A stretch of DNA of 44,807 nt from Candidatus Sumerlaeales bacterium (lineage in GTDB: Bacteria; Sumerlaeota; Sumerlaeia; Sumerlaeales; Sumerlaeaceae). The position numbers and the translations under genes were made by a program. A model generated the notes under the pieces. That model worked only from the letters and a program-made list of their open reading frames with translations. It did no database searches and was not told where the DNA came from. The stretch lies in NCBI GenBank assembly GCA_038243585.1, contig JBBSQY010000027.1, positions 1-44,807 of the forward strand, written 5' to 3'. Positions 634 to 37,724 of this stretch are shown one piece after another (position 1 is the first letter of the stretch; every line of letters starts with the position of its first letter).

Positions 634-659
634 GGGCGGCGACAGGTCGCCGCACTCCA
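634..659 (-). repeat. REP-like palindrome, family C (GGAG foot)
   Basis: GCGGCGAC-AG-GTCGCCGC followed by ACTCCA. Near-identical copies at about 25936 and 33907. Confidence 0.85.
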
Positions 660-915
660 TGATGATTGCTTTGTTGGTGGGGTTTTTGTGGGTGTCGGTG
701 ATTCTATGGATGGGTTTGTATGGGATGGCCGGGGCGATTTCGCGCTCTGGATTAGGACTTTATTATCCGGGGTCTTATTTTAAACTCTTGTGGAAACCAC
801 GGATTATTTTGCGCTTTTGAACACTGCGATTGGGAATTTGCACTCTCTGATTCCATAAGCCCTTTTCGCATGAGGCAATTTTTGCTGACTAACCTACCCA
901 GGCAGGCTTCCGCAG

Positions 916-2325
916 TTGGTTTTTGATACCCCAGAATTCTTTATCTTTTTTGTTATCGTGTTGGGGCTCTATTATGTCCTGAACTTCCGGTGGCAGAATA
1001 TCCTGCTTGTGGCGTCGAGCTACTTTTTTTATGGGTGGTTTGACTGGCGTTTTTGCGGGTTGCTGGCGGTGTCGACGGTGCTGGACTGGTATTGCGGGCT
1101 GAAGATTCCGGGGCCGGGCGGGCGTCGATGGCTTTATGTGAGCGTGATTGGTCAGCTTTCGCTGCTGGGATTCTTTAAGTATTTTAACTTTTTCGAGGAG
1201 AATTTCGAGCGGCTTTTTCAGGCGATCGGCTTTAATGCGGATGGCTGGACGCTTCATGTGGTGCTGCCGCTGGGGATTTCGTTTTATACTTTTCAGACGC
1301 TGTCTTATACGATCGATGTGGGTCGGGGGCAGCTTAAGCCGGTGCGGAACCTGATGGATTTCGCGGTGTTTGTTTCGTTCTGGCCGCACCTGGTGGCGGG
1401 GCCTATTCTTCGGGCGTCTTATATGTTGCCCCAGGTGCTGGCACCTCGGCGGGTGGATACCCGAATGTGGGCGGAGGGCACGTATTTCGTTCTGGTGGGG
1501 CTGGTGAAAAAGGTGGCGGTGGCGGATGTGATCGCCAGTTGGATTGAGGCGCCCGTTAATAATCCGGCGGATTACTCTAGCTGGACGCTGCTGCTGGTGG
1601 CTTATATGTTTGCCATTCGGATTTACTGCGATTTCGCGGGTTATACGGATATTGCCCGGGGGGTGTCGCTTTTCATGGGGTTTCGCCTGCAGGAGAATTT
1701 CATGTGGCCGTATTTCGCGGTGGGGATCGCGGATTTCTGGCGGCGGTGGCATATCTCGCTGGCGAGCTGGCTTCGGGATTATCTGTATTTTCCGCTGGGG
1801 GGAAGCCGGGGGGGGATCTGGAAGACGTATCGTAACCTGATTATTACTTTTACGCTGTGCGGATTATGGCATAAGCCGACGTGGAATTTTATCGTCTGGG
1901 GGTTTCTGAACGGTGTGCTGCTGTGCGTGGGGAAGGCCATATCCCCCTGGTACAGGGTGTTTCTGGAGGCGACCAAACGGACGGGGCTTTACATGGCTGC
2001 GATGTTTGTGCTGGGTCTGCTGACTTTCCATATGCTGATTCTCACGCAGATCGTGGCGATTATTCCGGGTATGGATCGGACGGTGGATTTCTATCGTCGC
2101 CTGTTGGAGTTTACGTGGTCGCCGGAGCCGGACAGGGGGCGCCTGGTGCTGTATGCGATGGGGGTGATGCTGCTTATCGATGTGCCGGAGTTTCTCCATG
2201 GGCGTCATACGTGGATCGTGGACAAGCCGGTGCTGCTTCGCGCCGCGGTGTATGCCGCCTTTATCGTCCTGCTCGTGCTTACGTGGACGAAGGATTATCA
2301 GCCGTTTTTTTACTTTCAGTTCTAA
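916..2325 (+). CDS. MBOAT family O-acyltransferase (AlgI/PatA/DltB-like)
   Basis: LPLGISFYTFQTLSY, VAGPILRA, YCDFAGYTDIARG, FWRRWHISLASWLRDYLY and LCGLWH motifs; multiple TM segments. Confidence 0.95.
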   Translation: MVFDTPEFFIFFVIVLGLYYVLNFRWQNILLVASSYFFYGWFDWRFCGLLAVSTVLDWYCGLKIPGPGGRRWLYVSVIGQLSLLGFFKYFNFFEENFERLFQAIGFNADGWTLHVVLPLGISFYTFQTLSYTIDVGRGQLKPVRNLMDFAVFVSFWPHLVAGPILRASYMLPQVLAPRRVDTRMWAEGTYFVLVGLVKKVAVADVIASWIEAPVNNPADYSSWTLLLVAYMFAIRIYCDFAGYTDIARGVSLFMGFRLQENFMWPYFAVGIADFWRRWHISLASWLRDYLYFPLGGSRGGIWKTYRNLIITFTLCGLWHKPTWNFIVWGFLNGVLLCVGKAISPWYRVFLEATKRTGLYMAAMFVLGLLTFHMLILTQIVAIIPGMDRTVDFYRRLLEFTWSPEPDRGRLVLYAMGVMLLIDVPEFLHGRHTWIVDKPVLLRAAVYAAFIVLLVLTWTKDYQPFFYFQF

Positions 2326-2352
2326 TCCCGCAAGGATAGCGAGTCTATTTCA

Positions 2353-3885
2353 GTGTTCAGCTTCGATACTCTTCATATCAGTTTCCGACGGATCATTCCG
2401 ACGCTCGTGATTACCGCAGGGCTTTTGCTGGCATTGGAGGTGGTGTTTCGGGCGGGCAACTGGTTTTACACCTATGAGGGGTGGGAGAGCCCGGGCCTGA
2501 TGAAGAAGATGGAGCAGGCGGAGAAGCTGTTTCAGGCGGAGGGGCGGATCGACCTGGTGACCATGAGCACGTCGGTGGGGAGGTCCTGGGATGTGCGCCA
2601 GTGGGAAGAGGCGACGGGCGGGGGCATCGTGGCCTATAATTTCGGGTTCCCGGATCAGCGCCCGGAGCGGCAGTATTTTCTGTTCAAGAATCATATTTTT
2701 CCGAAGTACCATCCGACTCATATCATTTATGGGATCGGGGCGGGGGATGTGAACTCGAACATCCACGGGATGAAACCGGATCGGCCTCGGCAGGGACCGT
2801 TCTGGAGGAATGGAAGGATTCGGGCTTTGGCGGCCAAGACGCTGTTGGAAAAAGCTACGGTGAAACTGGAGGACTGGAGCGTCATGTTTCGGTCGCGGCA
2901 GCGGGCGCGGTTTACTTTGCAGCATGGGCCGATGTGGATGCTGGAGGAGGATCCGACGATCGGGCGGGGCGTGCTTGCGCCAACGGTGCGCCGGCAGGCG
3001 TTTGGGCCAATGGAGTCTTCCTGGGGATTACTTCCAGAGGGGCTTCCAAATAATAATTACCACGATTACTGGGTGCCGGACGATGGCGAAATCGGGGAGC
3101 TCCTTAAGCTGTCGGAGTTTTGCGAGAAGCATGGCATCAAGCTGGCGATTGTGGAAATTCCGGCATCGCCGTATGCTCATACGAATTTTGACGATCCCGA
3201 AAAGGATTACTGGCGCTTTACGAATGCGCTGGATCACCTGGCGGCTAATGGGGCGTGGGTTCTTCCGATGGCGTGGGATCTGAAACTGGACAACACTTAT
3301 TTTGAGGATCAGGCGCATCTGAACCGTTGGGGCGGCCAGATGGTGACGGATTATGTTTACCGGAAAGTGATTCGGAAGTGGTACCCGGAGCAGGCGGCGA
3401 CGACGGCGGCGGCGTTGCCGGAGCCGGCGGAGGTGTGGTTTGAGGATCTGGTGACGACGGGCGGCGAGGGCGTTGCTGTCGAACGGCGGTACGTGGTGTC
3501 GGCGGACGCGCAGTATGCGGCGGCGCGGCAGGTGGTTGTTACGGCGGCGGTGGATATTACGCTGAGCGCGTCGGTGTCGCAGGGGAGTTATGCTGTGGAG
3601 ATCTATGGGGGGGACGGCTCAACAACGGAGCCGCTGCGTTCGGGAGATGCAAAGGTGGAATTGGCTGCGGTGGGGCCTGACGGTGAGGTATCGGCCAGGC
3701 TGCCCCTGGATAAATGGATTCTTTCGCGTATCGGCGTGACTTATACGCAGGCGTATTTTACTGTTCCCACTACGGGCGCGCTTGTGCTGCGGGTTCTGGA
3801 TGCGGGGAAGCGTCCGCTGGTGCTGGATTCGGCGTTTGTACGGAGACGGCTTACGAGTTCAAGCGACGCGATTATTGTGGAGTAA
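2353..3885 (+). CDS. SGNH/DltD-like periplasmic acyltransferase partner of the MBOAT, with extra C-terminal beta-rich domain
   Basis: N-terminal TM anchor, Ser motif (TMSTSVG), AYNFG and YFEDQAHLN (DxxH); directly downstream of the MBOAT gene. Confidence 0.7.
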   Translation: MFSFDTLHISFRRIIPTLVITAGLLLALEVVFRAGNWFYTYEGWESPGLMKKMEQAEKLFQAEGRIDLVTMSTSVGRSWDVRQWEEATGGGIVAYNFGFPDQRPERQYFLFKNHIFPKYHPTHIIYGIGAGDVNSNIHGMKPDRPRQGPFWRNGRIRALAAKTLLEKATVKLEDWSVMFRSRQRARFTLQHGPMWMLEEDPTIGRGVLAPTVRRQAFGPMESSWGLLPEGLPNNNYHDYWVPDDGEIGELLKLSEFCEKHGIKLAIVEIPASPYAHTNFDDPEKDYWRFTNALDHLAANGAWVLPMAWDLKLDNTYFEDQAHLNRWGGQMVTDYVYRKVIRKWYPEQAATTAAALPEPAEVWFEDLVTTGGEGVAVERRYVVSADAQYAAARQVVVTAAVDITLSASVSQGSYAVEIYGGDGSTTEPLRSGDAKVELAAVGPDGEVSARLPLDKWILSRIGVTYTQAYFTVPTTGALVLRVLDAGKRPLVLDSAFVRRRLTSSSDAIIVE

Positions 3886-3891
3886 ATATCG

Positions 3892-4353
3892 ATGACCGGT
3901 ATGGACAAACCTGAGTATGTGGTGCGATTTGTGGAATGGAATTCTCCCGAAGCGGAAACGCTGAAGCGAATTAGGTTTCGCGTTTTTGTGGACGAGCAGA
4001 AAGTTCCTGCGGACCTGGAGTTGGATGAGACGGACTGTGTCGCGCTGCATGTGCTGGCGGAGAACGGGGCGGGGGATCCGTGTGGCACGGGACGGTTGTT
4101 TCCGGATCTGGACAAGGCGGAGCAGGCAAAAATTGGACGAATGGCGGTGCTGAAGGAGCACCGCGGCTCGGGCTGCGGCGCGGCGGTGTTAATTGCGCTT
4201 GTTGATGAGGCCCGGAACGCAGGGTATCAGTCGGTAGTGCTGTCGGCTCAATTGCACGCGGTGCCGTTTTACCAGCGGTTCGGTTTCGACTCCGTAGGAC
4301 CGCTTTATGATGACGCAGGGATCCCTCATCAGGCGATGATCCTGAGGTTTTGA
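3892..4353 (+). CDS. GNAT N-acetyltransferase (ElaA/YjcF-like)
   Basis: RFRVFVDEQ, IGRMAVLKEHRGSGCG, LSAQLHAVPFYQRFGF and DAGIPH motifs. Confidence 0.92.
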   Translation: MTGMDKPEYVVRFVEWNSPEAETLKRIRFRVFVDEQKVPADLELDETDCVALHVLAENGAGDPCGTGRLFPDLDKAEQAKIGRMAVLKEHRGSGCGAAVLIALVDEARNAGYQSVVLSAQLHAVPFYQRFGFDSVGPLYDDAGIPHQAMILRF

Positions 4354-4572
4354 AAGTGGGCGCGGGGCAATTAACTTTGTGTTTCCAGAGTTGGATTGGT
4401 ATCGGGCTAAAGCAGTCAGAAAGCCGCGCTAAACCCGGCGACTCTCAGACGATATCGCCTGTTTACCAAAGGAAATTCGTCGGTTGCTTGCATGGGATTT
4501 TTCTGATTCTGATATTGGCTGATAAGTCGCTTTACGTATTGGTGAGTGAGGCTTTGCCAGCGGTGCTGGAAG

Positions 4573-5697
4573 CTATTTTTTGGATTTGAAACCAGCCAAA
4601 ATTCCCTGGGCGGCGGCGGCGACTCCTACTATGATTCCTGCAGCTTTGCCTATCGGATTAGGTTTTTCTTCTAGTTCGGATATCGCAGCAGGGGCGGCTA
4701 CGGTTTCCTTCGCAGAGCGCGGGTTGTAGGCGGCGCCTGCTGGCAGTTTGTCAGTTTCCAAGATCGACAGAGTCTTTTCTCCGGGCTCCTGGTCTGGTGC
4801 CTCCTTCGCCTTCACTGTCTTTTTTACACGACCCTTCCACGCCCCGTAGTTGCGGGAATACACCTGCGTGAGTTCAGCACCAAAAAAGACGATTTGGGCC
4901 GAATAGTAGATCCAGACCAGCAACACGACGAACGATCCAGCTGCACCGTAGGTTGATGCCATGCTGCTTTTGGCGAGATATAGACCCAGGGCGAATTTGC
5001 CGAGGGTAAATAAAATCGCTGTCAGCGCCGCGCCAAGCCAGACGTCGCGCCATGGCAGCTCTATATCTGGTAGAAATTTAAAGATCATGGCGAAGAGGGT
5101 GGTGACAACGGCGAAGGATACGACAATGTTCAGGATCTGAAGCAGAGGTCCCAAGGCTCCGGAGCCGCCAATGTATGTACCGAAGGCAGAGAGGATCGTG
5201 CTGATGACGAGAGACGCCAGCAATATAAAGCCGACGCCCAGGACCAGACCAAAGGATAAAAAACGATCTTTAATGAAGCCCATTATCCCGCCGCTGGATT
5301 CTTTTTCGGGCACGTCCCATACAGTATTCATGGCGTCTTTGAGCTGGACGAACACGCCGGAAGCGCCAAAAAGAAGCAGTAGCGAACTGATGATGGTGGC
5401 GAATATACCCTGACCCTTTTCCTCGTTAGCTCCCGCTATCATGGATTGAATGGCCTCTGCCCCCTGCTCGCCGACAATGCCGCCGATCTGACCTTGTATG
5501 CCTCCGGAAGCCGCTTCGTCTCCAAACACAAAACCGACAATGGCGATGGTAATGAGTAAGAGCGGCGCAATGGAAAATACCGTGTAGTAGGCGAGGGCGG
5601 CGCCGAGACGGGAAGCTTTATCGTCGGACCACTCGCGGGCGGCTTCCATTACGAGATCTTTGACGGTTTTGAAGGTTAACGGCATTTTTTGCTCCAA
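4573..5697 (-). CDS. YihY/virulence factor BrkB family membrane protein
   Basis: LGAALAYYTVFSIAPLL and STYGAAGSFVVLLVWIYYSAQIVFFGAE motifs. Start could be 5685. Confidence 0.93.
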   Translation of the reverse strand: MEQKMPLTFKTVKDLVMEAAREWSDDKASRLGAALAYYTVFSIAPLLLITIAIVGFVFGDEAASGGIQGQIGGIVGEQGAEAIQSMIAGANEEKGQGIFATIISSLLLLFGASGVFVQLKDAMNTVWDVPEKESSGGIMGFIKDRFLSFGLVLGVGFILLASLVISTILSAFGTYIGGSGALGPLLQILNIVVSFAVVTTLFAMIFKFLPDIELPWRDVWLGAALTAILFTLGKFALGLYLAKSSMASTYGAAGSFVVLLVWIYYSAQIVFFGAELTQVYSRNYGAWKGRVKKTVKAKEAPDQEPGEKTLSILETDKLPAGAAYNPRSAKETVAAPAAISELEEKPNPIGKAAGIIVGVAAAAQGILAGFKSKK

Positions 5698-5718
5698 CGA
5701 AATAGGTAGCCTTCGTAT

Positions 5719-5734
5719 TACAAATGCCGTGCCA
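5719..5734 (-). promoter_or_regulatory. Putative sigma-54 (-24/-12) promoter for the yihY-like gene
   Basis: Minus strand TGGCACGGCATTTGTA: perfect -24 box, GG-N10 spacing, -12 box TTGT (one mismatch). Confidence 0.55.
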
Positions 5735-5846
5735 GTTTAGATTTGGAGTTGACGGAGCGAATAACGGACGGCGGTGCATACGCGGAGTTGTGATTAGTAT
5801 TCTGGGTAGGCTCCGGCTTTTAACGGGGAGTCAAATTTATTATGAA

Positions 5847-7019
5847 ATGACTACGATCTTGAACTTTAAACTTATTAACGCTGCGTTTGTGTTGGGCGTA
5901 TTCTTTATTTTATCTCCATCCGCAAATGCGGCTGACGAACCGGCAGAGGAGAAATCCAGCAAGTCGGACGGAGCTGCAAAAACTGAAAAACATGACGCAT
6001 TTACAAGTTCAGTAATGGAAACACAGGTCTTGCTCGATCGGCTCTTGTTTTCTCCCGGAGCAATTGACGGCCTTAAAGGTCGGAACGCCGATTTCGCGCT
6101 GAAAGCTTTTCAGGAGGCGAACGATTTAGATGTTTCTGGCGAAATGGACGATAAGACCAGCGAGACCCTGCGCAATGCGGCCCAGGTGGACGGCTTCCTA
6201 CAGAGCTATACTTTAACCGAAGCCGATTTGGACAGCCAGTTTCTTGAATCTATTCCGGAGGATATGGGGAAGAGTGCGGAGCTCGATGCGCTGTCTTATG
6301 GTTCGGTTCAGGAAATGATCGCGGAGCGGTTTCATACGACTGCGGATTCACTGAAATACCTGAATCCAGGCGCGGAGTGGAAGACCGGGGATGTGCTTCA
6401 GGTTCCGAATGTGTTTCCAACTGAAATCAGCAACGTACCGCCCGGATCTAAGGCTGAATCGACGGAGACGGCTGAGAAGAATGACGATGACCAGACAAAG
6501 GATGAAGCGGCTGGCACAGATGACAAAGCAACGACTGATGGCGCTGAGCGACGGCCTTCGGGGCTTAAAAGTAAGCCAGAAGGACCTGTGACCATATTCG
6601 TTTCAAAACAAGACACCTACTTGAGGGTGTGGGATAAGGACGGCAAAATCCTGTTCCATGCTCCGGTATCGGCGGGCAGCGAACATGACCCGCTGCCGTT
6701 GGGGGACTGGAAAGTCAATGGGACGGAGAAGTATCCGAAATATAACTATAACCCGGACCTTTTCTGGGATGCGGACGAATCTGATAAAAAAGCAAAGGTT
6801 CCCGCTGGACCGAACAACCCGGTCGGGGTTGCATGGGTTGATATTACAAAGCCTCATTATGGACTTCATGGCACGCCGAACCCGGAGAAAATCGGTTATA
6901 CAGAAAGCCATGGCTGCGTTAGGCTGACAAACTGGGATGTGTTGCGGTTGGCAGATATGGTGAAACCGGGCACAAACGTTGAATTTCGCGAGAAGGCTGA
7001 AGAGAAGAAGAAACAGTAA
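5847..7019 (+). CDS. L,D-transpeptidase (YkuD family) with peptidoglycan-binding domain
   Basis: Signal peptide from Met at 5847; SPGAIDG..G PG-binding motif; GPNNPVG and YGLHGT...SHGCVRL catalytic motifs. Confidence 0.93.
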   Translation: MTTILNFKLINAAFVLGVFFILSPSANAADEPAEEKSSKSDGAAKTEKHDAFTSSVMETQVLLDRLLFSPGAIDGLKGRNADFALKAFQEANDLDVSGEMDDKTSETLRNAAQVDGFLQSYTLTEADLDSQFLESIPEDMGKSAELDALSYGSVQEMIAERFHTTADSLKYLNPGAEWKTGDVLQVPNVFPTEISNVPPGSKAESTETAEKNDDDQTKDEAAGTDDKATTDGAERRPSGLKSKPEGPVTIFVSKQDTYLRVWDKDGKILFHAPVSAGSEHDPLPLGDWKVNGTEKYPKYNYNPDLFWDADESDKKAKVPAGPNNPVGVAWVDITKPHYGLHGTPNPEKIGYTESHGCVRLTNWDVLRLADMVKPGTNVEFREKAEEKKKQ

Positions 7020-7206
7020 ACGTTGCTGCGCCGGGGCCCTCAACCGAGCAGGGCTCTGGCGAACAACGGGCCGAGATGGCCGCGTGGAAGTGCGGGTGTG
7101 GGCTGCGTTAGCGGCCAGGGATTTGCACACCCGGGAGCGGGCAACGGAAATAATCCGTAGACTTCCCGTTGCATAACAACGCGTCCGCATCATATCATTG
7201 GCGGAT

Positions 7207-7866
7207 ATGGATAACTTTAATTACGACGTCTTTCTGATATTTCCGATTGTGCTGTTCAGCCTGTCGGTGCATGAGTGTGCCCATGCGTTGGTGGCCTGGT
7301 GGGGCGGCGACGACACGGCGCGGTTGCAGGGTCGAATTACGCTTAACCCGATTTCGCATATTGATATATTTGGAACGATCATCATCCCGATTATCGCGGC
7401 CATTTCATCGCTGCCGCTGATCGGGTGGGCCAAGCCGGTTCCTGTGAATTTGAGCCGCCTGGAGAAGCCGTGGTGGGATGTGCTGGTGACGCTGGCGGGG
7501 CCGGGCTCAAATCTGTTGCTGGCGCTCCTGGCTACGCTGATTATGAAGTTCGCCCTGCTGTTTTTCGATCCTGCAACGGCGCACCCGGTTGTTTTTAACT
7601 TTGCCTATTATTTTATCGTCGTGAACGTGAGCCTGGCGATCTTTAATATGATTCCTGTGCCGCCGCTGGATGGTAGCCGGATATTGTTTCACTATGTCAT
7701 AAGCGGTCGGCCGAAACTGTACCCGGCGTGGGAAATGGCTGAACGTTTTTCTATAGTGTTCTTGTACTTGATTATAAGCATTCCAGGGACAAGCAGACTG
7801 CTATGGAGCACGGTAAACGGGCTTTCCAGTCCGATGCTGATGTTTATTGGTTTAAAGGATACCTGA
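7207..7866 (+). CDS. Site-2 protease (peptidase M50)
   Basis: HECAH zinc motif, LAGPGSN and FNMIPVPPLDG. Typical position upstream of trpS. Confidence 0.95.
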   Translation: MDNFNYDVFLIFPIVLFSLSVHECAHALVAWWGGDDTARLQGRITLNPISHIDIFGTIIIPIIAAISSLPLIGWAKPVPVNLSRLEKPWWDVLVTLAGPGSNLLLALLATLIMKFALLFFDPATAHPVVFNFAYYFIVVNVSLAIFNMIPVPPLDGSRILFHYVISGRPKLYPAWEMAERFSIVFLYLIISIPGTSRLLWSTVNGLSSPMLMFIGLKDT

Positions 7867-8915
7867 TGCGCATATTAAGTGGAATGCGTTCGACGGGGCG
7901 TCTCCATGTGGGGCACTACCTGGGCGCTTTGAAGAATTGGATCAGCCTGCAGGAAGCGGGTAACGAGTGCTTCTTCATGGTGGCGGATTGGCACGCGCTT
8001 ACGAGCGATTACGCGGATCCGTCGCGGCTGGGCGAGAATATGCGCGAGAGCGTGCTGGCGTGGTTGGCGGCAGGGCTTGATCCGGAACGGAGCACGATCT
8101 TCGTTCAATCTCATGTGAAGGAACATGCGGAGCTGGCTTTGTTGCTGGGAATGTTTACGCCGCTGACCTGGCTGGAGCGCAATCCCACTTATAAGGATCA
8201 GGTTGTGCAACTGGCCAATAAGGATGTGCAGACTTATGGCTTCCTGGGGTACCCGGTGTTGCAGGCGGCGGATATCCTGATCTACCGGGCGGAGGCTGTG
8301 CCGGTGGGGGAGGATCAATTGCCGCATCTTGAACTGACGCGGGAGATCGCGCGGCGGGTGAATTTCATACATGGCGGGCCTATCGAGGCTGGTACGAACC
8401 GTCCGCTGAACCCGATTTTTCCGGAACCGGATCCGCTGCTCAGCCCCGTGCCCAAGCTGCTGGGGCTGGATGGTCGGAAGATGAGCAAGAGCTATGATAA
8501 TGGCATCTATTTAAACGATGCACCGGATGTGATTGAGAAAAAAGTCAAGGGTATGCTGTCGGATACGGAACGGGTTCGGAAGAGTGATCCGGGACATCCG
8601 GAAAACTGTACGGTGTGCGGCTATCAGACGATCTTTAACGCAGCGAAGGCGGCGGAGCTGCATGAAGGTTGCCGTTCGGCGACCATCGGATGCTTTGACA
8701 ACAAGCGGGAACTGGCCGCGGCGCTGAATGAAATGCTGGAACCAATGCGGGAGCGCAGGGCCTATTATGAAGCTCGTCCGGATGAGGTGATTGCTATTAT
8801 TGAGGCGGGAAATAAGCGGGCACGGGAAGAGGCGCAGAAGACTATGGCCGTGTTGCGAGAGCGATTGAGTCTTGTGGAAACGGTTCAACAGATATTTGGT
8901 TTGTCCCACAGTTAA
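7866..8915 (+). CDS. trpS: Tryptophanyl-tRNA synthetase
   Basis: LSGMRSTGRLHVGH (HIGH), YPVLQAADIL, VPVGEDQ and KMSKS. ATG overlaps the upstream TGA. Confidence 0.97.
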   Translation: MRILSGMRSTGRLHVGHYLGALKNWISLQEAGNECFFMVADWHALTSDYADPSRLGENMRESVLAWLAAGLDPERSTIFVQSHVKEHAELALLLGMFTPLTWLERNPTYKDQVVQLANKDVQTYGFLGYPVLQAADILIYRAEAVPVGEDQLPHLELTREIARRVNFIHGGPIEAGTNRPLNPIFPEPDPLLSPVPKLLGLDGRKMSKSYDNGIYLNDAPDVIEKKVKGMLSDTERVRKSDPGHPENCTVCGYQTIFNAAKAAELHEGCRSATIGCFDNKRELAAALNEMLEPMRERRAYYEARPDEVIAIIEAGNKRAREEAQKTMAVLRERLSLVETVQQIFGLSHS

Positions 8916-8960
8916 GGCTAAAATGATTGCGGTTATTGCGCGACGGAAAGGTTTTTTTTG

Positions 8961-9188: not shown

Positions 9189-9200
9189 GCTGGCGCTGTT

Positions 9201-27636: not shown

Positions 27637-27719
27637 TTGGCGTTTACCTGGAAATTAACAAATTTGACGGATAGGCGGGAAGAACGCGAAGAAAAAGTAT
27701 TAGCTGGAAAAGCGAAGGT

Positions 27720-27797: not shown

Positions 27798-27822
27798 AAC
27801 AGCCTCGGGATGCTTATGCTTT

Positions 27823-28830: not shown

Positions 28831-28974
28831 TTGATAATTTCCTCTTATACTATAATGTGCGTTTACCATGGGACAATTGAGAGGCAATTGCGTTTCAATC
28901 AAGTAAGTTTTGCACGTGTCGTTGTTTTTGGGGGGGCGGAGAGGTTTTATGGGTTTGGACTGGAGCCGGTTTCG

Positions 28975-29937: not shown

Positions 29938-30149
29938 GCTGGAGGATGTGCTATCACGGTGTTTGGCAGACGCAAGGGAATGATGCAGAGTTTGGGGCCA
30001 GTGGCTAAGGATTGGGAATTTGGCACTGATAGAGCGGATACACGAAGATGAAGGGAAAGCCAGATGCGCAGATTGAGCAGGAAAAGAAGATAAATGGAAT
30101 TGGTTAGTTCTTGCATTGCAATGGCACGCTGCGCAGGCAGTTGAAACAA

Positions 30150-30626
30150 ATGCCGGAGACTTCGTACCCACAACCAAATGATTCGCGCCCGAAGGGCCTG
30201 ACGCGCAGCCAGGTCATTACTGTGTGGGTGGGCCTGATTGGCTCTGCAATGGGGTGTTCCGCCTGGATGCTGGCCATGGCGGGCATGGGCGGGGACTGGT
30301 TGAGTTTCGGCGTTACTCTGGCGTTTGACGTCATCATGGTTTTGGTTTTTGCGCTGCTTAGTCTGCGGCGTCCTACCTGGCGTTTTCCCCTTCTGGCGCT
30401 GTTTATCGTTTTGATCACGGGTCATTGCCTGGCCATGTATTGGTTGAGATATGAACTGTGGCGGGGCGGCGGTATTATAACACCAGCGGAACTGGTGGAG
30501 GAAAAAGAAATGCTGACCATGACGGTTGTCGCTCTGATAAGTATTCTGCTGGCGCAATTTCTTGTGGTTTATATTTTGCAGGCGAACAGTCGCCGGAACC
30601 GCGCAAAAATGACGCGAAAGTCTTAG
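30150..30626 (+). CDS. Hypothetical membrane protein (about 4 TM)
   Basis: Four hydrophobic segments; fills the gap before pspC. Confidence 0.65.
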   Translation: MPETSYPQPNDSRPKGLTRSQVITVWVGLIGSAMGCSAWMLAMAGMGGDWLSFGVTLAFDVIMVLVFALLSLRRPTWRFPLLALFIVLITGHCLAMYWLRYELWRGGGIITPAELVEEKEMLTMTVVALISILLAQFLVVYILQANSRRNRAKMTRKS

Positions 30627-30656
30627 GGCTGAGCTGAACAAGCTCAGGTCGTCAAC

Positions 30657-30672
30657 AGGCACTAACCTTGCA
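30657..30672 (+). promoter_or_regulatory. Putative sigma-54 promoter for the pspC-domain gene
   Basis: AGGCACTAACCTTGCA with exact GG-N10-GC spacing, 35 bp before the ATG, followed by an AAAAGGAA SD. Confidence 0.65.
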
Positions 30673-30706
30673 GTCATTGTAGATAAACTATTAAAAGGAA
30701 CTGAAT

Positions 30707-30895
30707 ATGGCTCTTGTGCGTTCACGTGAGAACAAAATTATTGCCGGGGTATGCGGAGGCATTGCCGATTCGCTGGGGTGGAGCCCAACACTGGTGCGAT
30801 TCCTTTACATTGTCGGCAGCCTGATCTCTGCTGCGTTTCCGGGCGCGATTGTGTATATCATCTTGTGGATGATCATGCCAAAAGCCAGATATTAG
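30707..30895 (+). CDS. PspC domain protein
   Basis: RSRENKIIAGVCGGIA..LG.SPTLVR and YIILWMIMP motifs. Confidence 0.93.
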   Translation: MALVRSRENKIIAGVCGGIADSLGWSPTLVRFLYIVGSLISAAFPGAIVYIILWMIMPKARY

Positions 30896-30907
30896 CGGCC
30901 AGTTACT

Positions 30908-32113
30908 ATGGGATGGACCTTACCACAGGTGTCTGAATTCTGGATTGCATCGCTTATCTGCGCAACCTTTATGATTGGTTCCGCGTCGTCCGTGGCGCAG
31001 GGTACAAGTTCAACAATGGATTCGTACCGTGTGCCGAATACTACCACATCGCCAGCAGAATTGTTGCTTTCCATTGATCCTGATAGTGCCGCTCCGCGTA
31101 ACAGCGAGGGCGACATTATTGAGCTGAGCAATGGGCGACTGGCGTTGGTTTACTCCAAATTTTCTGGCGGCAAGGAAGACCACAGTGCGGCGCGGCTGGC
31201 GATGCGGACGTCAAGCGACGGGGGGCGAAGCTGGTCGGCGGACAAATCGCTATTGGACAATGAGGGTGGTGTCAACGTGATGTCGGTTTCTCTGGTCCCG
31301 TCGCGGGATGATGGGATACTGCTCTTTTATCTTCGGAAAGATAGTGCCGCGACTTCGTGTGCCTTGTTTGTCCGGCGGTCGACGGATGATCTTCAAACTT
31401 TGTCGGAAGCGGTGCTGGTAACGACGCTGCCGGGTTACAACGTGGTGAACAACGATCGAGTGATCCGCCTGAAAAGCGGGCGGCTGCTGGTGCCGGTTGC
31501 GCTTCACACGGATTCTAAAACGGTGGATAACCTGAATCCAAAATTTGAGGAAAAGGGCGCGATGATAGCCTACTACTCTGACGATGATGGAAAGACCTGG
31601 CAACGTGACATGATGCCGGTGCCAGCGGTGGCAGAGCGTACTCTGCATTTACAGGAGCCCGGGGTGGTGGAATTGGCAGATGGCCGGGTGATGATGTATA
31701 TTCGCACGGGCCACGGGGCGCAGTATGCCAGCTATTCCAAAGATGGCGGCGAGACCTGGACGGTGCCGGAGCCCATGGCTCTTGTATCGCCTCTGAGCCC
31801 AGCCACGATTGAGCGAGTGCCGGATTCGAATCTGCTGGTGGCCGTGTGGAATGACCACAGCGGTCGGTGGCCATTTAAAAAAGAAAATCGCACTCCGCTA
31901 TGCCTGGCGGTGAGCAAGGATGAAGGAAAAACCTGGTCGCCGTCGCAGATGGTGGAGTCTGATCCGAACGGATGGTATTGTTACACCAGCATGTCGTTTA
32001 TTAATGACCGCCTGATCCTTAGTTATTGTGCAGGTCAGGGCCGGGCAAACGGCCTGAACCGTCTGAAAGTTTCGGAAGTGCCGCTTGCATGGGTGAAATA
32101 CCTGGGACGTTGA
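30908..32113 (+). CDS. Secreted sialidase-like BNR/Asp-box beta-propeller protein
   Basis: Asp boxes SSDGGRSW, SDDDGKTW, SKDGGETW and SKDEGKTW; also PRNSEG and QEPG. Confidence 0.88.
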   Translation: MGWTLPQVSEFWIASLICATFMIGSASSVAQGTSSTMDSYRVPNTTTSPAELLLSIDPDSAAPRNSEGDIIELSNGRLALVYSKFSGGKEDHSAARLAMRTSSDGGRSWSADKSLLDNEGGVNVMSVSLVPSRDDGILLFYLRKDSAATSCALFVRRSTDDLQTLSEAVLVTTLPGYNVVNNDRVIRLKSGRLLVPVALHTDSKTVDNLNPKFEEKGAMIAYYSDDDGKTWQRDMMPVPAVAERTLHLQEPGVVELADGRVMMYIRTGHGAQYASYSKDGGETWTVPEPMALVSPLSPATIERVPDSNLLVAVWNDHSGRWPFKKENRTPLCLAVSKDEGKTWSPSQMVESDPNGWYCYTSMSFINDRLILSYCAGQGRANGLNRLKVSEVPLAWVKYLGR

Positions 32114-32152
32114 GCGCGAGTGGGGCGCCGATTTTACTCTATATTCCTGGCG

Positions 32153-33781
32153 TTACTGGAAAAGCTGCCAGTCAGTCACTCCCGATAGGTCGAGGGGGCC
32201 GTCGTATACGAACTTGACGCTGTCAGCGATGGTCGTGGCGACAGGATTTGTCGTTGCGTTAATGGCGACAGAGCCGGCTGTTCCGGCGTTAAAGGGATAG
32301 GTTCCGAGATAGGTCCATTTGTGGCGATCGTTTGCAGTTACGACTTTTTGCGCTGTCCCGCTGCGGTGATTGATTGTCGCATTGGAGAAGGTATTGCCGG
32401 CGAACACGCGATAGTTTCCGGCCTTAGGCAGGGCGGGGCGGAAAGTAACTGAACTGGCCTCGGTGGAAAGCTCCAAAGCGTCGCCATCGAAACACTCATG
32501 GGAAATCATATCCTGGGTGGTGCTTGTACATAGCCCGTTGACATCCACTGACGCTCCCGGCGGGATTTTATCCGTTTCCACGATATAGTGCAGGTTGCGC
32601 TCAAGCGTTTTGAGTGAAACGCCCCAGCTTTGCAGTACGGGAAGCGCCTGCAGAATCCCGGGCACGGTGTATTCCCGCTGATGACAGATCATGACGTAGT
32701 TATAGTTGGGTGCATTCAGGGCCTGCCGGGCGACGGTTTCAATAAGAGCTTTCGTGTTGGCCACGGAGGTTCCATCGACAAACAAATCGCGTTCTGCGGT
32801 AAGCAGGCCTTTCTCTCGGGCGATATCATATGCGACGGAATCGGAAATCGTCCGGCTGTCCAGAAAGTACATATTGCGGTCTTTCAGGTTCTGGATCATC
32901 ACCTCAAGGCCGGGGCGATATTGACTGAAACGGCTGCCCTGGTGATTGTTCAGGCCTCCGACGTGGGGTGCAACATTAGTTAGGTTTTCGTCCAGCACCT
33001 GCAAAATTTTCGTTGGCGTCATGCTGATATAAAGGCGATGAGGGTCGCTTGGGTTGGAGTCGGCCTGGCCTATATACTGCAGGGGCTGGTGCAGCATGGT
33101 TTCAATGTCCTTAGTTTCTGCATCGTCAAGAACAGCGGCACTGTAGGTGAGAAAAGGAATGATCGCATAGGCAAGGCCGGGGGCCTGATTGAAGAGGGTA
33201 TGGGTATAGGTTCCCGGACTTGCGGGGTTAAGGGCTCCGAGGTCGTCTACAACTATGGTGACTTCTGGCGGAGCAGACCCTTCTGCAGGTGGCGCGGCTT
33301 CGCCCTGGAGGGTAAGCCGCAGGGCGTCCGCAATGACTTTGGTTCCTGCGCCCGTCCATAGGTCCGTCTGGGTTATTCGGCCCGCTCCTGTAAACGTAAA
33401 GGTTCCTATAGAATGCCATCCGGTGCCCACATAGTTTTGTGATCGCTTAACGGTTTGAATGCCGGAGTCATCCTCGACAAGGTATTGTGCGGCGGCGGCG
33501 TAGTTGCCGTTGTCCACGTGGAACTCTACGAGATATGTTCCGTCAGGGATGCCGTCTATGTCCCAGACAGCAAGAGACGATCCGGTGCCAGGGCCGGCGG
33601 CGCTGAACTGGTAGTTTCCCAAAAAGGTTCCAGTTTTATCCAATATCCAGTTGCCGGATTTGACGCGGAACGACGAGTCTTCTCCATCGAAAACGATCTG
33701 ATAGGCACTGGCGCTGGAAGCGGTAAAAGCGACGGCGACCGCCATGGCGATGGTTCGAATTATGAGGGCTGGGGTTTTCAA
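32153..33781 (-). CDS. Secreted divergent polysaccharide deacetylase flanked by golvesin-like beta-sandwich domains
   Basis: Signal peptide; IVVDDLG, MLHQPL, GLNNHQGS, FLDSRT and RDLFVD; VIADAL/IADSVKF-type modules on both sides. TTG start at 33781. Confidence 0.85.
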   Translation of the reverse strand: MKTPALIIRTIAMAVAVAFTASSASAYQIVFDGEDSSFRVKSGNWILDKTGTFLGNYQFSAAGPGTGSSLAVWDIDGIPDGTYLVEFHVDNGNYAAAAQYLVEDDSGIQTVKRSQNYVGTGWHSIGTFTFTGAGRITQTDLWTGAGTKVIADALRLTLQGEAAPPAEGSAPPEVTIVVDDLGALNPASPGTYTHTLFNQAPGLAYAIIPFLTYSAAVLDDAETKDIETMLHQPLQYIGQADSNPSDPHRLYISMTPTKILQVLDENLTNVAPHVGGLNNHQGSRFSQYRPGLEVMIQNLKDRNMYFLDSRTISDSVAYDIAREKGLLTAERDLFVDGTSVANTKALIETVARQALNAPNYNYVMICHQREYTVPGILQALPVLQSWGVSLKTLERNLHYIVETDKIPPGASVDVNGLCTSTTQDMISHECFDGDALELSTEASSVTFRPALPKAGNYRVFAGNTFSNATINHRSGTAQKVVTANDRHKWTYLGTYPFNAGTAGSVAINATTNPVATTIADSVKFVYDGPLDLSGVTDWQLFQ

Positions 33782-33883
33782 AGGGGGCGGATCCTTTTCC
33801 TTTTTTGGGGAGGTCGCTAATTTGGCTGCGCGAGCTATCTCAGGAAGGCAAGTGTATTGCGCCTTTGTTGAGCCGATAGTCCA

Positions 33884-33937
33884 CTGGTGCGCTCCGCGCA
33901 CAGCCAGGGCGGCGACAGGTCGCCGCACTCCAGGACG
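33884..33937 (-). repeat. REP family C copy with extended flank
   Basis: About 54 bp nearly identical to 25914-25968. Confidence 0.88.
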
Positions 33938-33961
33938 TTTACTCCTAGACGGTTGCTTCCG

Positions 33962-34543
33962 CTATTCGGAGTGGTTTCGCTGGCGCGTCAGCTCGTCTAT
34001 GATGCGTTTCATGTGATCCTTTTCGCCAGCGGTCAGATAGATCATCCTGATTCCTGCGTGGATAATGGCAATGATGATTCGAACCAGGAGCATGAGGAGC
34101 ACTATGATCAGGAACAAGGCTGCGGGGCGGGCGGATTTTGAGCCGATGCGCCCGATGAAACGAGCCATCTCGTCTGTCTGCTCACTCTGGGCAGCGCGTA
34201 TTTCCTCGAGTCCTTCCGGCTGAGAAGATTCCGCTTCCGAATCGTCTGACTGGGCGAGAGGAGCTGGGTTTAATGTTCGTCGTTCCGGCGTTTCGTAGGC
34301 TTGGGGAAAGGCATCGGTGGTGTGGCCGCGGATGACAAATTCCCACCTGTCGACCTGGGTTTCAATGGCCCGGGGATCCATCACCACCTCTCCGATGCGG
34401 AACAAAACATAACCGGCCATGGCCACGCCAAAGGCTATTAAAAGGAGTCCCATCCAAGCGGCAAAAATCCGCACGTCGCTGGACGCGTCCGGCTGGCTTG
34501 CGGTCGGTTGCGGTTGCGAAGGAATGGTGCTGTCCTGTTTCAT
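33962..34543 (-). CDS. Hypothetical membrane protein (2 TM)
   Basis: Two hydrophobic helices. Start moved to Met 34543 to avoid overlap with the divergent gene. Confidence 0.65.
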   Translation of the reverse strand: MKQDSTIPSQPQPTASQPDASSDVRIFAAWMGLLLIAFGVAMAGYVLFRIGEVVMDPRAIETQVDRWEFVIRGHTTDAFPQAYETPERRTLNPAPLAQSDDSEAESSQPEGLEEIRAAQSEQTDEMARFIGRIGSKSARPAALFLIIVLLMLLVRIIIAIIHAGIRMIYLTAGEKDHMKRIIDELTRQRNHSE

Positions 34544-34658
34544 TTTCCATGAGTAAATACGGGCCAGAAGGGCATTCACGTCGTGGATAATTGAGCCGAA
34601 GTCGTTTGACAGCAATTTAATATAATTCGAATGACAAAACGTGGCTGGAGACTGCTGA

Positions 34659-36422
34659 GTGATTGACGTTTTGGAAAAAAAACCGGTATGGCGCACTGTC
34701 TGGTTTGCGGTGTTGCTTTGCGGGGTACTGCTTGGGCTCAGCCTGGCTCCGGGTACGAGTGATTGGATAGAGCTAAATGACCAGCGCGCTGCGCTATGGT
34801 TTAATGATCTAGCTGGAGCATCTCCGGTGTTTGACCGTATTGTGCTTTTGGTCGCAGACGATGACGAAGGGACTGAGGGACTGGTGGCGCTGGCTGCCGT
34901 ATGGTTTTTAAGCACCCTCTGGTTAGCCCCCACCCGGGTGGCAAAAGCCCGCCTTTTGGGAACCTTCTTTTTCATTGTTGCGGTGCTGGTCCCTTACTTC
35001 ATGTTGGATTCGATTCTGGACGACGTTATTGAACGCAAAAGTCCATCCATGGAGTTTCTCAAGCCGTTTAATGATCTGGGTAAGTTGCTTGACTATAATG
35101 TTGATTTGACGGACAAACGCAGTTTTCCTAACATCGATGCGATGATCATGTTTACCATTGGTTTTTTGCTGTTGAGACTGGGACGGCGGCATGGTGGGAT
35201 TGTCGCGCTTGGGCTGGGTGCCACAGTGCCAGTTCTTCTGTGCGTTGCCGGTCTGGCTTGGGTTAGCGACATTTTTCTAGGATCACTCCCGCTGTCGATT
35301 CTTGTAAGCGCAATTGCTCTTGAGACGCCCTTTGCCCGATTGTTCGAAGGTCTCGTGGATGCCTCCGCTGCTGGCATCGATGAGGGGGAAAGGATGTTAC
35401 GTAACTTTTATCCGATATGGCGCCATCGCAGACTTTATTGGCTTTCCCAAAAGGCGTCGCATATGGAGGTGGCGGTCAAACGATTTACGCGGCGGGATAT
35501 ACCGACTATACTTGATAAAAAAGGGCGTTATGCCGCCGAAGTGCCTTCGCTTACGGTGCCGTTAGGAGGACTGCGATCGGTTATTCGCATTGTTTCAATG
35601 GGGCCTCTGAAGGCCGTCATTCGAGCATATCCGCTAAACCAGCGGGGCGACGCAGAACAGCACTTTCGTGCTTCCACCCTGTTGGCACAGCACGAGGTTC
35701 GTGTGCCTGAGATCTACCATCGGACTGATAGTCCCAAAGATTACGGGGCGCTTTTCATAGTGGAGGAGTTTATTGAGGGTTGCTCGAAAAAACCGTCGCA
35801 AATTACACCGGATGAATTTGTGGCTGCCGCAAAAGAATTGGCGCGACTGCATCAGCTAACAAGCCAAACCTGGGGTCCGGTGGATCAGCCTAGAACAGAA
35901 GATTTCGCGAACGTGCTTTTGCGGCGGCTGGAACGGCAGGTTGGTCAGCTTGTTCGAGGCTCTATTTCAGGGGTGGATCAGGCGTCGGTAGGCCTGGTGA
36001 GAAGGTGGTTTCAAAACTGGCAACAGGATCTTTTTGCTGTTACTAACTTTTCGCTGATCCATGGCAAACTGCATCGTGATAATTGTATGTTTGAAACAGG
36101 CGGGGGCTTTTGCCTGCTGGATGTCACAACGCTAGAATGGGGGATTCCCGCGGTGGACCTGGTGCAGGTACACCATTCTCTATGTGGCGACAGACCGGAA
36201 CTTATTGCCCAGTTCGATGCTGCTTATTACAATGAAACGTCGGAAACGGAAGCGGCCAAGCGGTTACACTTTGTGGCTTTGTTCGAGGCAATGTACTGTG
36301 TTGGACAGATTTCGAAACACCGGAAACGGATGGCCCGAGGGTTTAAATCAGGAAAAGGAGTCGGCGTGGCAAAAAGCGCACTGTGGTGGCGCAGGCTCAT
36401 GGATATCGTGCGGGCGCAGTAA
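34659..36422 (+). CDS. Fusion of a PAP2/LpxT-like membrane domain and an aminoglycoside-phosphotransferase-like kinase domain
   Basis: N-terminal: ERKSPS, RSFPN and WVSDIFLG in a TM context. C-terminal: VRVPEI, VEEFIEG, ELARLH, LIHGKLHRDN and LLD..TLEWG.PAVDL. Confidence 0.75.
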   Translation: MIDVLEKKPVWRTVWFAVLLCGVLLGLSLAPGTSDWIELNDQRAALWFNDLAGASPVFDRIVLLVADDDEGTEGLVALAAVWFLSTLWLAPTRVAKARLLGTFFFIVAVLVPYFMLDSILDDVIERKSPSMEFLKPFNDLGKLLDYNVDLTDKRSFPNIDAMIMFTIGFLLLRLGRRHGGIVALGLGATVPVLLCVAGLAWVSDIFLGSLPLSILVSAIALETPFARLFEGLVDASAAGIDEGERMLRNFYPIWRHRRLYWLSQKASHMEVAVKRFTRRDIPTILDKKGRYAAEVPSLTVPLGGLRSVIRIVSMGPLKAVIRAYPLNQRGDAEQHFRASTLLAQHEVRVPEIYHRTDSPKDYGALFIVEEFIEGCSKKPSQITPDEFVAAAKELARLHQLTSQTWGPVDQPRTEDFANVLLRRLERQVGQLVRGSISGVDQASVGLVRRWFQNWQQDLFAVTNFSLIHGKLHRDNCMFETGGGFCLLDVTTLEWGIPAVDLVQVHHSLCGDRPELIAQFDAAYYNETSETEAAKRLHFVALFEAMYCVGQISKHRKRMARGFKSGKGVGVAKSALWWRRLMDIVRAQ

Positions 36423-36458
36423 ACTTGGCAGCGGCGCTCACCTGTCTAGTATAAAGGG

Positions 36459-37448
36459 TCATTGGACTTTCCAATGGCCGCCTTTGGTGGGTCCAATTCT
36501 GAGTAGTCTTCCGGAATTACGTAGTTTCGAAATTTTCTTTTCCACAGCTCGGGAGCTGATACCCAGAGTAAATGAGATTTCTTTGGCAGTGAGCGCAGGA
36601 TTGATTTTCAACATTTCCAGGATTAGCCTGGAAGTCGTGTCCGGGTTTTCTTCCGAACTTTCTTCCGAACTTTCTTCCGAACTTGCGGATTCTAAAATCT
36701 GGGTCATTGAATGCCGGAGGGCCTGTAGCATAAATTCCACGAACGGCGTTGCTTCCCCTGCTTTATCGGCGTTTGATAGAGCCTTATAGTAGTCGTCCTG
36801 CTGATGATGGATTACCGTTTCAACAGGCAGATAGCCAAGCATCGGTTGCCAATTGCTTAGAATAACTGTTTGCCACAATCGCCCCATACGACCATTTCCA
36901 TCTTCAAACGGATGTATGAATTCCAGTTCATAATGGACCACGCAGCTGGCTATCAGCGGGTGGGCGTCAGTTTGGGCCAGCCAAGTCAGCAGGTCGTCCA
37001 GCAGCTTCGGAACTCGTTTTGCCGGCGGTGCCATGTGGACTAGAGTTTTTTCCTGAAAAATTCCTACGCCGCCGGCCCGAATTATTCCTGGCCTGTCTAC
37101 CAGGCCGGCCATTAAAATACCGTATGCCTCCAGAAAATCACAGGGCCGGGATGGGTTCCATTGATCCATTTTGTCATAGGCGGCGAAGGTATTTCTAACC
37201 TCCTGAATTTCCCGCGGCAATCCCAGCACGCGCTTTCCATCCAGTACTGCTGTAACCTGCTCAAGGGTCAGGGTGTTATTTTCAATGGCAAGCGAGGCCT
37301 GGATCGTTTTAATCCGATTCTGGCGGCGCAATTGCGGCGAAAGCGCGGCGTCGGTGGACGCAGACCATCTTCCCAGCATTTCGCTTATGAGAGCAACCTG
37401 GTTGATAATCTGCGATGTGATTTGAAATGGCGGCGAATACGGCATCAT
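36459..37448 (-). CDS. Fic family protein with N-terminal inhibitory motif and C-terminal HTH
   Basis: Canonical HPFEDGNGRMGR motif; SLAIEN (S/T)xxxE(G/N); C-terminal wHTH ending RIGPTKGGHW. Confidence 0.93.
   Translation of the reverse strand: MMPYSPPFQITSQIINQVALISEMLGRWSASTDAALSPQLRRQNRIKTIQASLAIENNTLTLEQVTAVLDGKRVLGLPREIQEVRNTFAAYDKMDQWNPSRPCDFLEAYGILMAGLVDRPGIIRAGGVGIFQEKTLVHMAPPAKRVPKLLDDLLTWLAQTDAHPLIASCVVHYELEFIHPFEDGNGRMGRLWQTVILSNWQPMLGYLPVETVIHHQQDDYYKALSNADKAGEATPFVEFMLQALRHSMTQILESASSEESSEESSEENPDTTSRLILEMLKINPALTAKEISFTLGISSRAVEKKISKLRNSGRLLRIGPTKGGHWKVQ
36648..36683 (+). repeat. 12-bp tandem repeat x3 (in-frame SSEE units)
   Basis: TTCTTCCGAACT x3. Confidence 0.9.
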
Positions 37449-37604
37449 AGCGTTAGCTGAGAAAGTCAGTCTTTTGCACCTGCGACGTCAATTGTTACTT
37501 CATTGGAACGCATTAAGCAGGTGCCACCGGGAGAATGGATGGCGGTAACGCGGGAAATATAGGTGAAAGGCCATTTTCTGATTTTTCGTCAACATTTAAT
37601 CGAG

Positions 37605-37724
37605 CTGGAGTATGTGAGGCCTGCCACCGAAATTGTTATTTACAGACCATGGCGTTCCTCCCATGTTCCTGGGCCCCGCTCCGCGGGAGATTAAGGCGGT
37701 GGCGGGCCACCGCACTCCAGGACG
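37605..37724. repeat. REP family C variant with a degenerate inverted partner
   Basis: GCGGTGGC-GG-GCCACCGC-ACTCCAGGACG at 37693-37724; degenerate inverted copy ctggagtatgtgaggcctgccaccg at 37605-37629. Confidence 0.7.

Follow-up and report, generated by a model that had tools for sequence, protein, structure and literature searches.

The repetitive extragenic palindromic (REP) sequences of a Candidatus Sumerlaeales bacterium (GenBank assembly GCA_038243585.1, hereafter G000) are strongly oriented, and their orientation goes with local patches of GC skew. The window analyzed here is the entire contig JBBSQY010000027.1 (C27; 44,807 nucleotides), which carries three REP families (A, B and C), a gene for a REP-associated tyrosine transposase (RAYT), the 3' part of a large terminase gene (terL) and one copy of a short motif that we call X (ATTCCCGYAYGGGnnCTTA). 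A preliminary description of this DNA had proposed a strand-polarised spread of the repeats, framed in terms of replichores. The polarity holds genome-wide (131:27), but what it follows is local skew patches centred on terminase/X cassettes. As an explanation, we give about even chances to the reading that REP orientation follows skew patches originating from these cassettes, with one strand becoming exposed as single-stranded DNA (ssDNA) and RAYTs cutting the REPs that it carries.

G000 comprises 3.43 Mb in 99 contigs and is 89.7% complete; G002 is a congener, other G-numbers denote further genomes compared, and C-numbers denote contigs. Skew is the G-minus-C excess at fourfold codon sites after subtraction of the mean coding-strand term, unless it is called raw. 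The 2616 genes of G000 come from a simple codon-trained caller, which makes gene-based numbers approximate. REP copies were counted by position-weight scans of G000 with the reversed genome as control, and the foot strand is the strand bearing the GTAG (families A, B and D) or GGAG (C and J) foot. We use the terms G-rich and C-rich instead of leading and lagging because the leading strand is not assignable in G000.

Repeat Orientation and Local Skew

The 184 REP clusters in G000 consist of 125 single, 33 tandem and 26 inverted clusters, and all 26 inverted ones have outward feet. With skew computed over 25 kb, 131 of the 158 single and tandem clusters have a C-rich foot strand and the other 27 a G-rich one. 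A 7-kb window gives 109:16 with 33 undetermined, so the bias of IS200-type insertion sequences (IS), in which the active strand is G-rich, does not apply. By family, the 7-kb counts (C-rich:G-rich) are A 47:6, B 34:4, C 10:4, D 15:2 and J 3:0, and scoring by contig majority yields 41:6 with 7 ties. Tandem arrays place the foot on the C-rich strand 32 times and on the G-rich strand once (25-kb window).

Transcription is not the explanation, because skew overrides the mRNA strand: in cases with a G-rich mRNA strand, the template carries the foot 17 times out of 22 (7-kb window), and in those with a C-rich mRNA strand, the mRNA strand carries it 42 times out of 45. Hairpin stability is likewise not the explanation, because copies that fold equally well on both strands are still polarised 53:3; copies whose inverse REP (iREP) folds better are polarised 11:3. 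In the congener G002, the scorable clusters divide 24:3 in favour of a C-rich foot strand (28 clusters in 27 loci, 16 of these loci chosen for repeats and 11 for X), and G034 gives 6:1 among 21 clusters in 12 loci.

Two other causes were rejected. REPs do not produce the skew, as six strongly skewed loci of the relative G001 hold no B-like copies; this genome, 81% complete, returned no RAYT, A-type or D match. The base make-up of the repeats does not set their orientation either, since foot strands hold more G than C, which would favour the opposite of what is observed.

Skew Patches at terL and Motif X

Skew in G000 is patchy, and C27 is the most strongly skewed of the 60 largest contigs. Its strand-asymmetry domain (538..40000) has a G/T-rich plus strand, with fourfold skew declining from +0.63 to +0.11 with distance from terL. 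The orphan 3' part of that gene occupies the first bases of the window (1..537, plus strand; phrog_38, E 3.9e-30); it is C-rich on the coding strand, and the flank immediately after its stop codon, where the domain begins, is G-rich. Genes of the domain count 814 G to 268 C, and their G002 orthologues are far weaker (594 to 419).

Motif X occurs 41 times in G000 and not once in the control. The copies are dispersed, lie at many patch edges and include one in the window (41215..41233, plus strand). The mean skew step across X is +0.135, compared with 0.006 at 653 long intergenic gaps (18 of 24 steps positive, p 0.0005). Skew is positive downstream of X at 29 of 33 sites and upstream at 14 of 30, is present in genes of either strand and in intergenic DNA, and runs 0.18, 0.23, 0.18, 0.11 and 0.07 over the 30 kb downstream (nine sites).

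Repeat orientation follows the same motif. In REP clusters 0.6-20 kb downstream of X, the foot is opposite to X in 30 of 32, while upstream clusters show no pattern (12:14); the combined 42:16 was reached by none of 2000 random site sets. Downstream of X, the favoured orientation has a density of 8.2 per 100 kb, based on 42 clusters and counting those nearest X, and the other one of 0.39; elsewhere the two orientations combined reach 3.3-3.7. Within 600 bp of X, G000 also has 26 REP copies (21 of family B), each with its foot opposite to X.

Variants of X number 17 in G002, 8 in G008 and 5 in G001, with none in G004 or G005. At scorable sites in the relatives, raw skew is positive downstream in 17 of 24 and upstream in 9 of 17. 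Three G001 loci (C84, C136 and C109; L217, L231 and L233) have fourfold skew of 0.8-1.0 over whole genes on both strands, far exceeding the usual replication skew.

Several roles for X or for the contigs themselves were set aside. X is not a purely bidirectional origin, because on average its effect is downstream only and both sides are affected mainly at terL cassettes. Contig ends show no bias as origins (30:26 and 29:27). The single match to X in the viral IMG/VR data, among thymidylate synthase and polymerase genes, was treated as chance. X has a likeness to what we take to be the oriIS of IS91/ISCR elements; the Y2 transposase of that group (PF04986) had no match in five genomes, although the control search was also without a match anywhere.

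Loci With and Without a Cassette

On C36, the genes around terL and X are adjacent in G002, where the cassette is absent. Along aligned fourfold sites, skew in G000 declines on the left from near 0 to -0.68 and opens on the right at +0.79, whereas G002 has no step; G:C on the right side is 533:211 in G000 and 378:463 in G002. The left-side skew may be older, because G001 shares it. Conversely, a terL and X cassette on G002:C137 occupies the interval in which G000 (C4) carries the RAYT and repeats of family J (the J REPtron). Skew there is V-shaped in G002 (-0.44 to -0.07 on the left, with one gene at +0.53, and +0.65/+0.77 on the right), with no step in G000. Finally, G001 contigs C147 and C58 each end at an X site facing outward; the genes on either side are neighbours in G000, and we infer that the two contigs join; skew is -0.91/-0.97 on one side and +0.78 on the other, compared with +0.12 to +0.27 in G000.

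Gene order often differs between congeners, and the X sites on C39, C41 and C28 fall outside this set because the relatives' contigs break there. The three collinear comparisons, in which V-shaped skew is found only in the cassette carrier, argue for the cassette as a cause of the skew and not a marker of it.

Genes Associated With Motif X

Many X copies precede an opposite-strand ATG by about 35 or 62-70 nt, a placement suggestive of a promoter or activator site. Genes led by X include the large terminase, a portal-protease-capsid cluster and an endolysin-like gene in the window; most remaining sites lead short, often decayed open reading frames (ORFs). The window gene (40282..41166, minus strand) combines peptidoglycan-binding and GH46 domains (PF01471 and PF01374), starts 48 nt from X and has a weak endolysin match (phrog_1493, E 1.2e-4).

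G000 has at least five dispersed terL copies, one complete (C36) and four 3' ends, including the first 537 bases of the window, which match the complete copy at 77% and the copies ending C65, C4 and C51 at 94-96%. The paralogues differ by 14-17 synonymous and 0-1 non-synonymous codons, a pattern indicating purifying selection that presumably keeps them intact. The complete cassette lies between two host genes and encodes TerL alone, with no initiator, primase or helicase gene. Across 61 genomes searched, terL was found in 52, mostly as one gene behind a conserved small gene. As expected of a gene transfer agent (GTA), G000 has conserved chromosomal terminase, portal, protease and capsid genes by PHROGs matches, and ComEC is present in all five genomes. 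In contigs of a sequencing run that is probably from the source sample, depth at terL is about 5-6 times that of the flank, with joints arising from shared repeats, and is 9-13 along 1-20 kb of the window outside repeats, contig depth being flat by construction.

Other X sites have features of their own. X is preceded at G000:C15:48,900-49,300 and 14 similar sites by a conserved stretch of some 400 bp with a stem and X-like words; this stretch may act as DNA or RNA because its short ORF is often frameshifted. On C8 (position 2367) and C31 (position 17916) of G000 (L107 and L108), X leads ORFs of 212 and 376 aa without a PHROGs match, which are candidates for further parts of the packaging system. 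At G000:C25:37,274-45,628 and C30:1,613-8,250, genes resembling restriction-modification or defence systems, judged from sequence starts, begin directly downstream of X.

REP Families and RAYT Genes

Family scans of the window recovered the seven A and seven B copies of the preliminary description. Family A has six minus-strand copies, at 16380..16402, 18823..18845, 25766, 26014, 26051 and 27772..27794, and one plus-strand copy (18653..18675), which forms with 18823 an inverted pair with outward feet (18653..18845). Family B consists of a minus-strand tandem pair (17777..17846; 17777-17801 and 17822-17846), a cluster 3' of the RAYT gene (22121..22415) made up of 22121-22145 (plus), a double-foot palindrome at 22286-22314 and 22391-22415 (minus), and two minus-strand copies 5' of the gene (23039..23103; at 23039 and, degenerate, 23079). 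Of six C copies described, five are recognisable: 636..658 (minus), 25816-25841 (plus), 25939-25962 (minus), 33909..33931 (minus) and 37696..37718 (minus), the last a variant with changed stem pairs. The sixth proved to be a weak candidate (37757-37782, minus). The copies at 25816 and 25939 form an inverted variant pair inside a mixed cluster (25766..26073) whose three A copies are all on the minus strand, and the fold of the former is barely present (-1.4 kcal/mol). All three plus-strand copies in the window are partners in inverted pairs, as first described.

The repeats extend well beyond the window. G000 contains 106 copies of A, 88 of B and 16 of C, together with 44 and 10 of two additional families, D and J, and the reversed genome contains none. 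The consensus of A, B and D carries the canonical GT[A/G]G foot. That of C and J starts with GGAG and lacks it; these two nevertheless appear to work like REPs because both flank genes matching NF047646. Copies in inverted clusters number 26 of 106 (A), 7 of 88 (B), 0 of 16 (C), 22 of 44 (D) and 5 of 10 (J), so doublets do not dominate in G000 as they would in REP doublets forming hairpins (REPINs). The A-type pattern is present in 23 of 61 genomes searched, and the exact B repeat occurs in many records named Verrucomicrobia, Kiritimatiellales or Lentisphaerae.

The window RAYT (TnpA-REP; 22412..22897, minus strand, 161 aa) scores 97.9 bits against NF047646 (cut-off 80), matches E. coli TnpA-REP 4ER8 at E 2.9e-12 and carries the motifs HIH (at 71) and YIIQNP (at 124); Pfam Y1_Tnp gave no match at E 0.001. 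Five B sites, on both sides, and no other family lie within 1 kb, consistent with the original observation that only B flanks the gene, to which we assign B as the cognate family. The TAG stop codon overlaps the first downstream B repeat, being contained in its GTAG foot (22412-22415). Unlike a multiplied IS, the gene is single copy, its next match in the genome having 29% identity. A Verrucomicrobia record (L294) encodes a RAYT 50% identical to it, also flanked by B copies.

The preliminary description spoke of one RAYT, with others elsewhere or a promiscuous enzyme as options. G000 in fact has eight Y1 loci, four matching NF047646 and four IS200-like, and a six-frame profile search returned the same eight and no further significant match. 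As had been suggested, further RAYTs lie elsewhere, and B, C and J each sit beside their own: the RAYT on C73 has family C on both flanks and that on C4 is flanked by family J. The three intact RAYTs share 25-34% identity over 56-116 residues. No RAYT among the eight loci is flanked by A or D, whose genes may be missing or lost given an assembly completeness of 89.7%; in G034 and G009, different RAYTs have A-type repeats on their flanks, and a pair of D copies brackets a RAYT match on G002:C170. The proposed multi-family system thus comprises five families in G000, with one RAYT per family for three of them and two orphan families, A and D. We assign no RAYT subclass because the tree, which did not include the C73 RAYT, has poor support and the window RAYT is on a long branch. 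The reading frame of the J RAYT (G000:C4:38066-38797, L008) contains J repeats at both ends. A fourth RAYT-like gene (G000:C65:2879-3418, L006) is broken by a TGA, and lies beside an IS-like fragment; no copy of the five families occurs within 1 kb of it.

Proposed Mechanism

The strand running away from a cassette is enriched in G and T at the expense of C and A, as would be expected if it were single-stranded for part of the time. We propose that the TerL of each cassette would cut near it, in cis, and that this cut would start headful packaging into a domesticated head. The packaged DNA might re-enter cells as one strand through ComEC, or the break might be repaired by outward replication; by either route, the strand running 5'→3' away from the site would spend time single-stranded and lose C. 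Cutting in cis is favoured because TerL is the sole protein of the complete cassette and is intact in each copy.

In vitro, known RAYTs (TnpA-Ec and TnpA-Sm) cut only the single-stranded foot strand (REP) and not the iREP (PMC8266576; here and below, published systems are described from excerpts of the cited papers), so a repeat whose foot is exposed as ssDNA would be cleaved and disappear. RAYTs likely remove REPs from the exposed strand, with the opposite orientation being kept and multiplied. New copies and tandem arrays would arise mainly on the complementary strand, a gain suggested by the favoured orientation being enriched and not merely left over. The excess of that orientation, together with the 32:1 tandem arrays, needs a gain step besides loss.

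More tentatively, and as a proposal somewhat likelier to fail than to hold, X and terL may form a selfish cassette that has multiplied across the chromosome along with non-coding derivatives. Each would cause 10-40 kb of host DNA to be transferred or copied in one direction through an ssDNA stage, creating V-shaped composition domains within the lifetime of the genus and sorting RAYT repeats by strand. If true, a bacterial chromosome would be shaped by dozens of local start sites, not one origin.

Several observations weigh against an origin of the polarity in cassettes and RAYT cutting. The particle, the cut site, the single-stranded intermediate and the RAYT activity are all predicted. The X effect replicates in relatives (17 of 24) at p 0.06. 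In G000, 15 of the 22 largest upward skew steps are not near X, and just 7 of the 22 fall within 5 kb of it, so other causes of skew patches exist. X at portal genes lacks skew (C67, +0.03; G002:C374, -0.01; G001:C90, -0.13), terL with X on G008:C90 has negative skew downstream, hairpin-ORF X sites average just +0.10 with two negative, and skew is positive on either side of the X copy in the window, without a clear step. A class-wide gene upstream of terL, possibly the small terminase (TerS), was not found in the incomplete G000 assembly with a profile of 11 upstream-of-terL proteins from relatives. ComEC is common, being present in 10 of 14 control genomes as well. Matches to housekeeping genes, picked by motifs that we presume to be characteristic and partly spurious, divide 19 G : 17 C : 12, and the leading strand is not assignable from them. 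Other markers in G000 gave a dnaA in a uniformly skewed contig, no dif-like site that stood out, tRNAs at 20 G : 13 C : 10 undetermined and no assembled rRNA.

The complete relative G021 also speaks against generality, with 10:9 among 31 clusters. The polarity is lineage-limited, because most of this genome lacks it and the same B repeat in 111 loci of other lineages gives 22:20 (raw skew; 41 further clusters were too short to score, 21 undetermined and 12 inverted). Six of the 10 C-rich cases in G021 fall in one 43-kb block (C1:4,086,500-4,130,000; L091, L092 and L116), where raw skew is +0.2 to +0.4 inside a negative arm. Negative skew grows on its left flank, and all nine REP copies in its first 34 kb face the C-rich way. 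By its layout, we read this reversed-skew block as a putative prophage.

Alternative Explanations

The main rival is a run-off origin, which would leave the same mark. X and terL would then be phage-derived origins of local run-off replication (ROR), as in Bartonella but dozens in number, with the G-rich strand as lagging-strand template and no packaging needed. A V-shaped, decaying skew about a point does fit a bidirectional origin, and skew steps are biased toward abrupt rises (skewness 0.48-0.56, sign-flip p 0.011-0.045). X bears 10-bp-spaced repeats in relatives, and some X flanks hold AT runs and words resembling what we take to be the DnaA-box consensus. ROR, moreover, is tied to a GTA in the excerpted account of PMC5496983. 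We nonetheless consider a run-off origin unlikely: the C36 cassette, itself examined, is TerL-only with no phage replication gene beside the site, most X sites act on one side, and ordinary replication skew elsewhere does not polarise the B repeat.

We find it less probable again that the patches are two ordinary replichores shuffled by rearrangement, with X inserting in a fork-dependent manner near breakpoints and REP polarity amounting to replication polarity. The frequent differences in gene order between congeners, the 99 contigs of the assembly and the 15 of 22 largest up-steps away from X would all agree with such shuffling, as would an upstream skew of ordinary size and random sign (mean absolute 0.138, compared with 0.141 genome-wide). 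Against it, the step appears only with the cassette at three sites collinear in a congener, skew weakens with distance and in G001 climbs to 0.8-1.0 at fourfold sites, and the polarity is absent in other lineages and most of G021.

That the window RAYT is promiscuous and spreads A, B and C, an option of the preliminary description, is improbable. None of the eight Y1 loci supplies an A- or D-flanked RAYT, the GTAG foot is common to A, B and D, and E. coli TnpA-REP can cut foreign group-2 REPs (PMC8266576, in excerpt). However, C and J flank RAYTs of their own on C73 and C4, A-type repeats and a D pair accompany other RAYTs in G034, G009 and G002, and the A and D enzymes may be missing from the incomplete assembly.

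Least probable of all is that cassettes make the skew while REP orientation is filtered without RAYTs, either because the host deletes hairpins from the exposed strand or through selection on RNA structure. In its favour, the foot-strand fold of A, B and D is more stable by about 1 kcal/mol, polarity extends to A and D though the assembly has no RAYT for them, and co-directional gene pairs carry the foot on the mRNA strand 58:24, but polarity persists at equal or reversed stability (53:3 and 11:3), skew overrides the mRNA strand, and the favoured orientation is enriched (8.2 compared with 3.3-3.7 per 100 kb).

Relation to Known Systems

The REP/RAYT parts are of known kinds, except for the GGAG foot of C and J and the fact that doublets are not dominant. 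Several REPtrons per genome are known from Stenotrophomonas and Pseudomonas (PMC8266576, PMC3686654 and PMC6006769, in excerpt), so multiple families are ordinary and the orientation bias is the new part. G000 shares with these REPtrons and with 4ER8 an HUH-Y1 enzyme above the NF047646 cut-off, foot-plus-hairpin repeats on its flanks, a number of divergent RAYTs that each pair with a repeat of their own, and hundreds of extragenic copies. It differs in that copies are mostly singlets or tandem arrays, strongly oriented, that C and J use a GGAG foot and that the assembly contains no RAYT for A, the commonest family. The REPINs of SBW25 have outward feet, as do all 26 inverted clusters here; in the part of PMC3116915 available, 61% of SBW25 REPs are doublets and singlets are read as remnants, in contrast with 26 of 106 (A) and 7 of 88 (B) inverted copies in G000. 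The same source reports 11 tandem arrays oppositely oriented on two chromosome sides, which is the nearest printed hint of polarity that we found.

IS200/IS605 elements likewise combine a Y1 enzyme acting on ssDNA with an orientation bias that tracks local GC skew (excerpts of PMC3971601 and PMC3333891). Their coding strand goes with the fork and positive skew (PMC3971601), whereas the foot strand here is C-rich and no two-replichore pattern is seen. This opposite direction constrains models, as it implies that the cleavable strand avoids the exposed strand. Orientation offers a genome-wide readout of how REPs spread in vivo.

The Bartonella GTA, as excerpted from PMC5496983 and PMC11841831, resembles the cassettes in having domesticated, partly scattered phage packaging genes, a phage-derived cis site and a decaying gradient on the flanking chromosome, and uptake of its DNA requires ComEC (PMC5496983). 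It has one ROR origin acting over hundreds of kb, compared with about 41 sites acting over 10-40 kb here, where TerL cassettes are multiplied and the imprint consists of base skew and repeat orientation. RcGTA-type clusters also tie GTA genes to extreme GC skew, which the available text of PMC9836097 ascribes to codon use in leading-strand core and GTA genes; the skew of G000, by contrast, is strand-specific whatever the gene strand and changes sign at the cassette. In the open-access literature, we found no report of foot strands avoiding the G-rich strand or of terminase cassettes imprinting skew. Strong, fast-changing local GC skew tied to dispersed terminase cassettes bears on the calling of origins from GC skew, on the role of domesticated phage heads and on packaging genes as selfish elements.

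Additional Observations

Four IS200-like Y1 genes (G000:C62, C28, C16 and C67; L001-L004) are each flanked by their own long palindromes, which are also dispersed without a gene. Next to terL, window positions 763-1500 and 2407-8915 correspond to G000:C68:1008-9136, which carries second copies of an MBOAT gene, its partner, a GNAT gene, an M50 peptidase and TrpRS; the MBOAT copies on C27 and C68 have 85% nucleotide identity, pointing to duplication beside terL or contamination. A small cluster of genes that look phage-derived, judged from their translated starts, lies at G000:C2:104,900-110,000.

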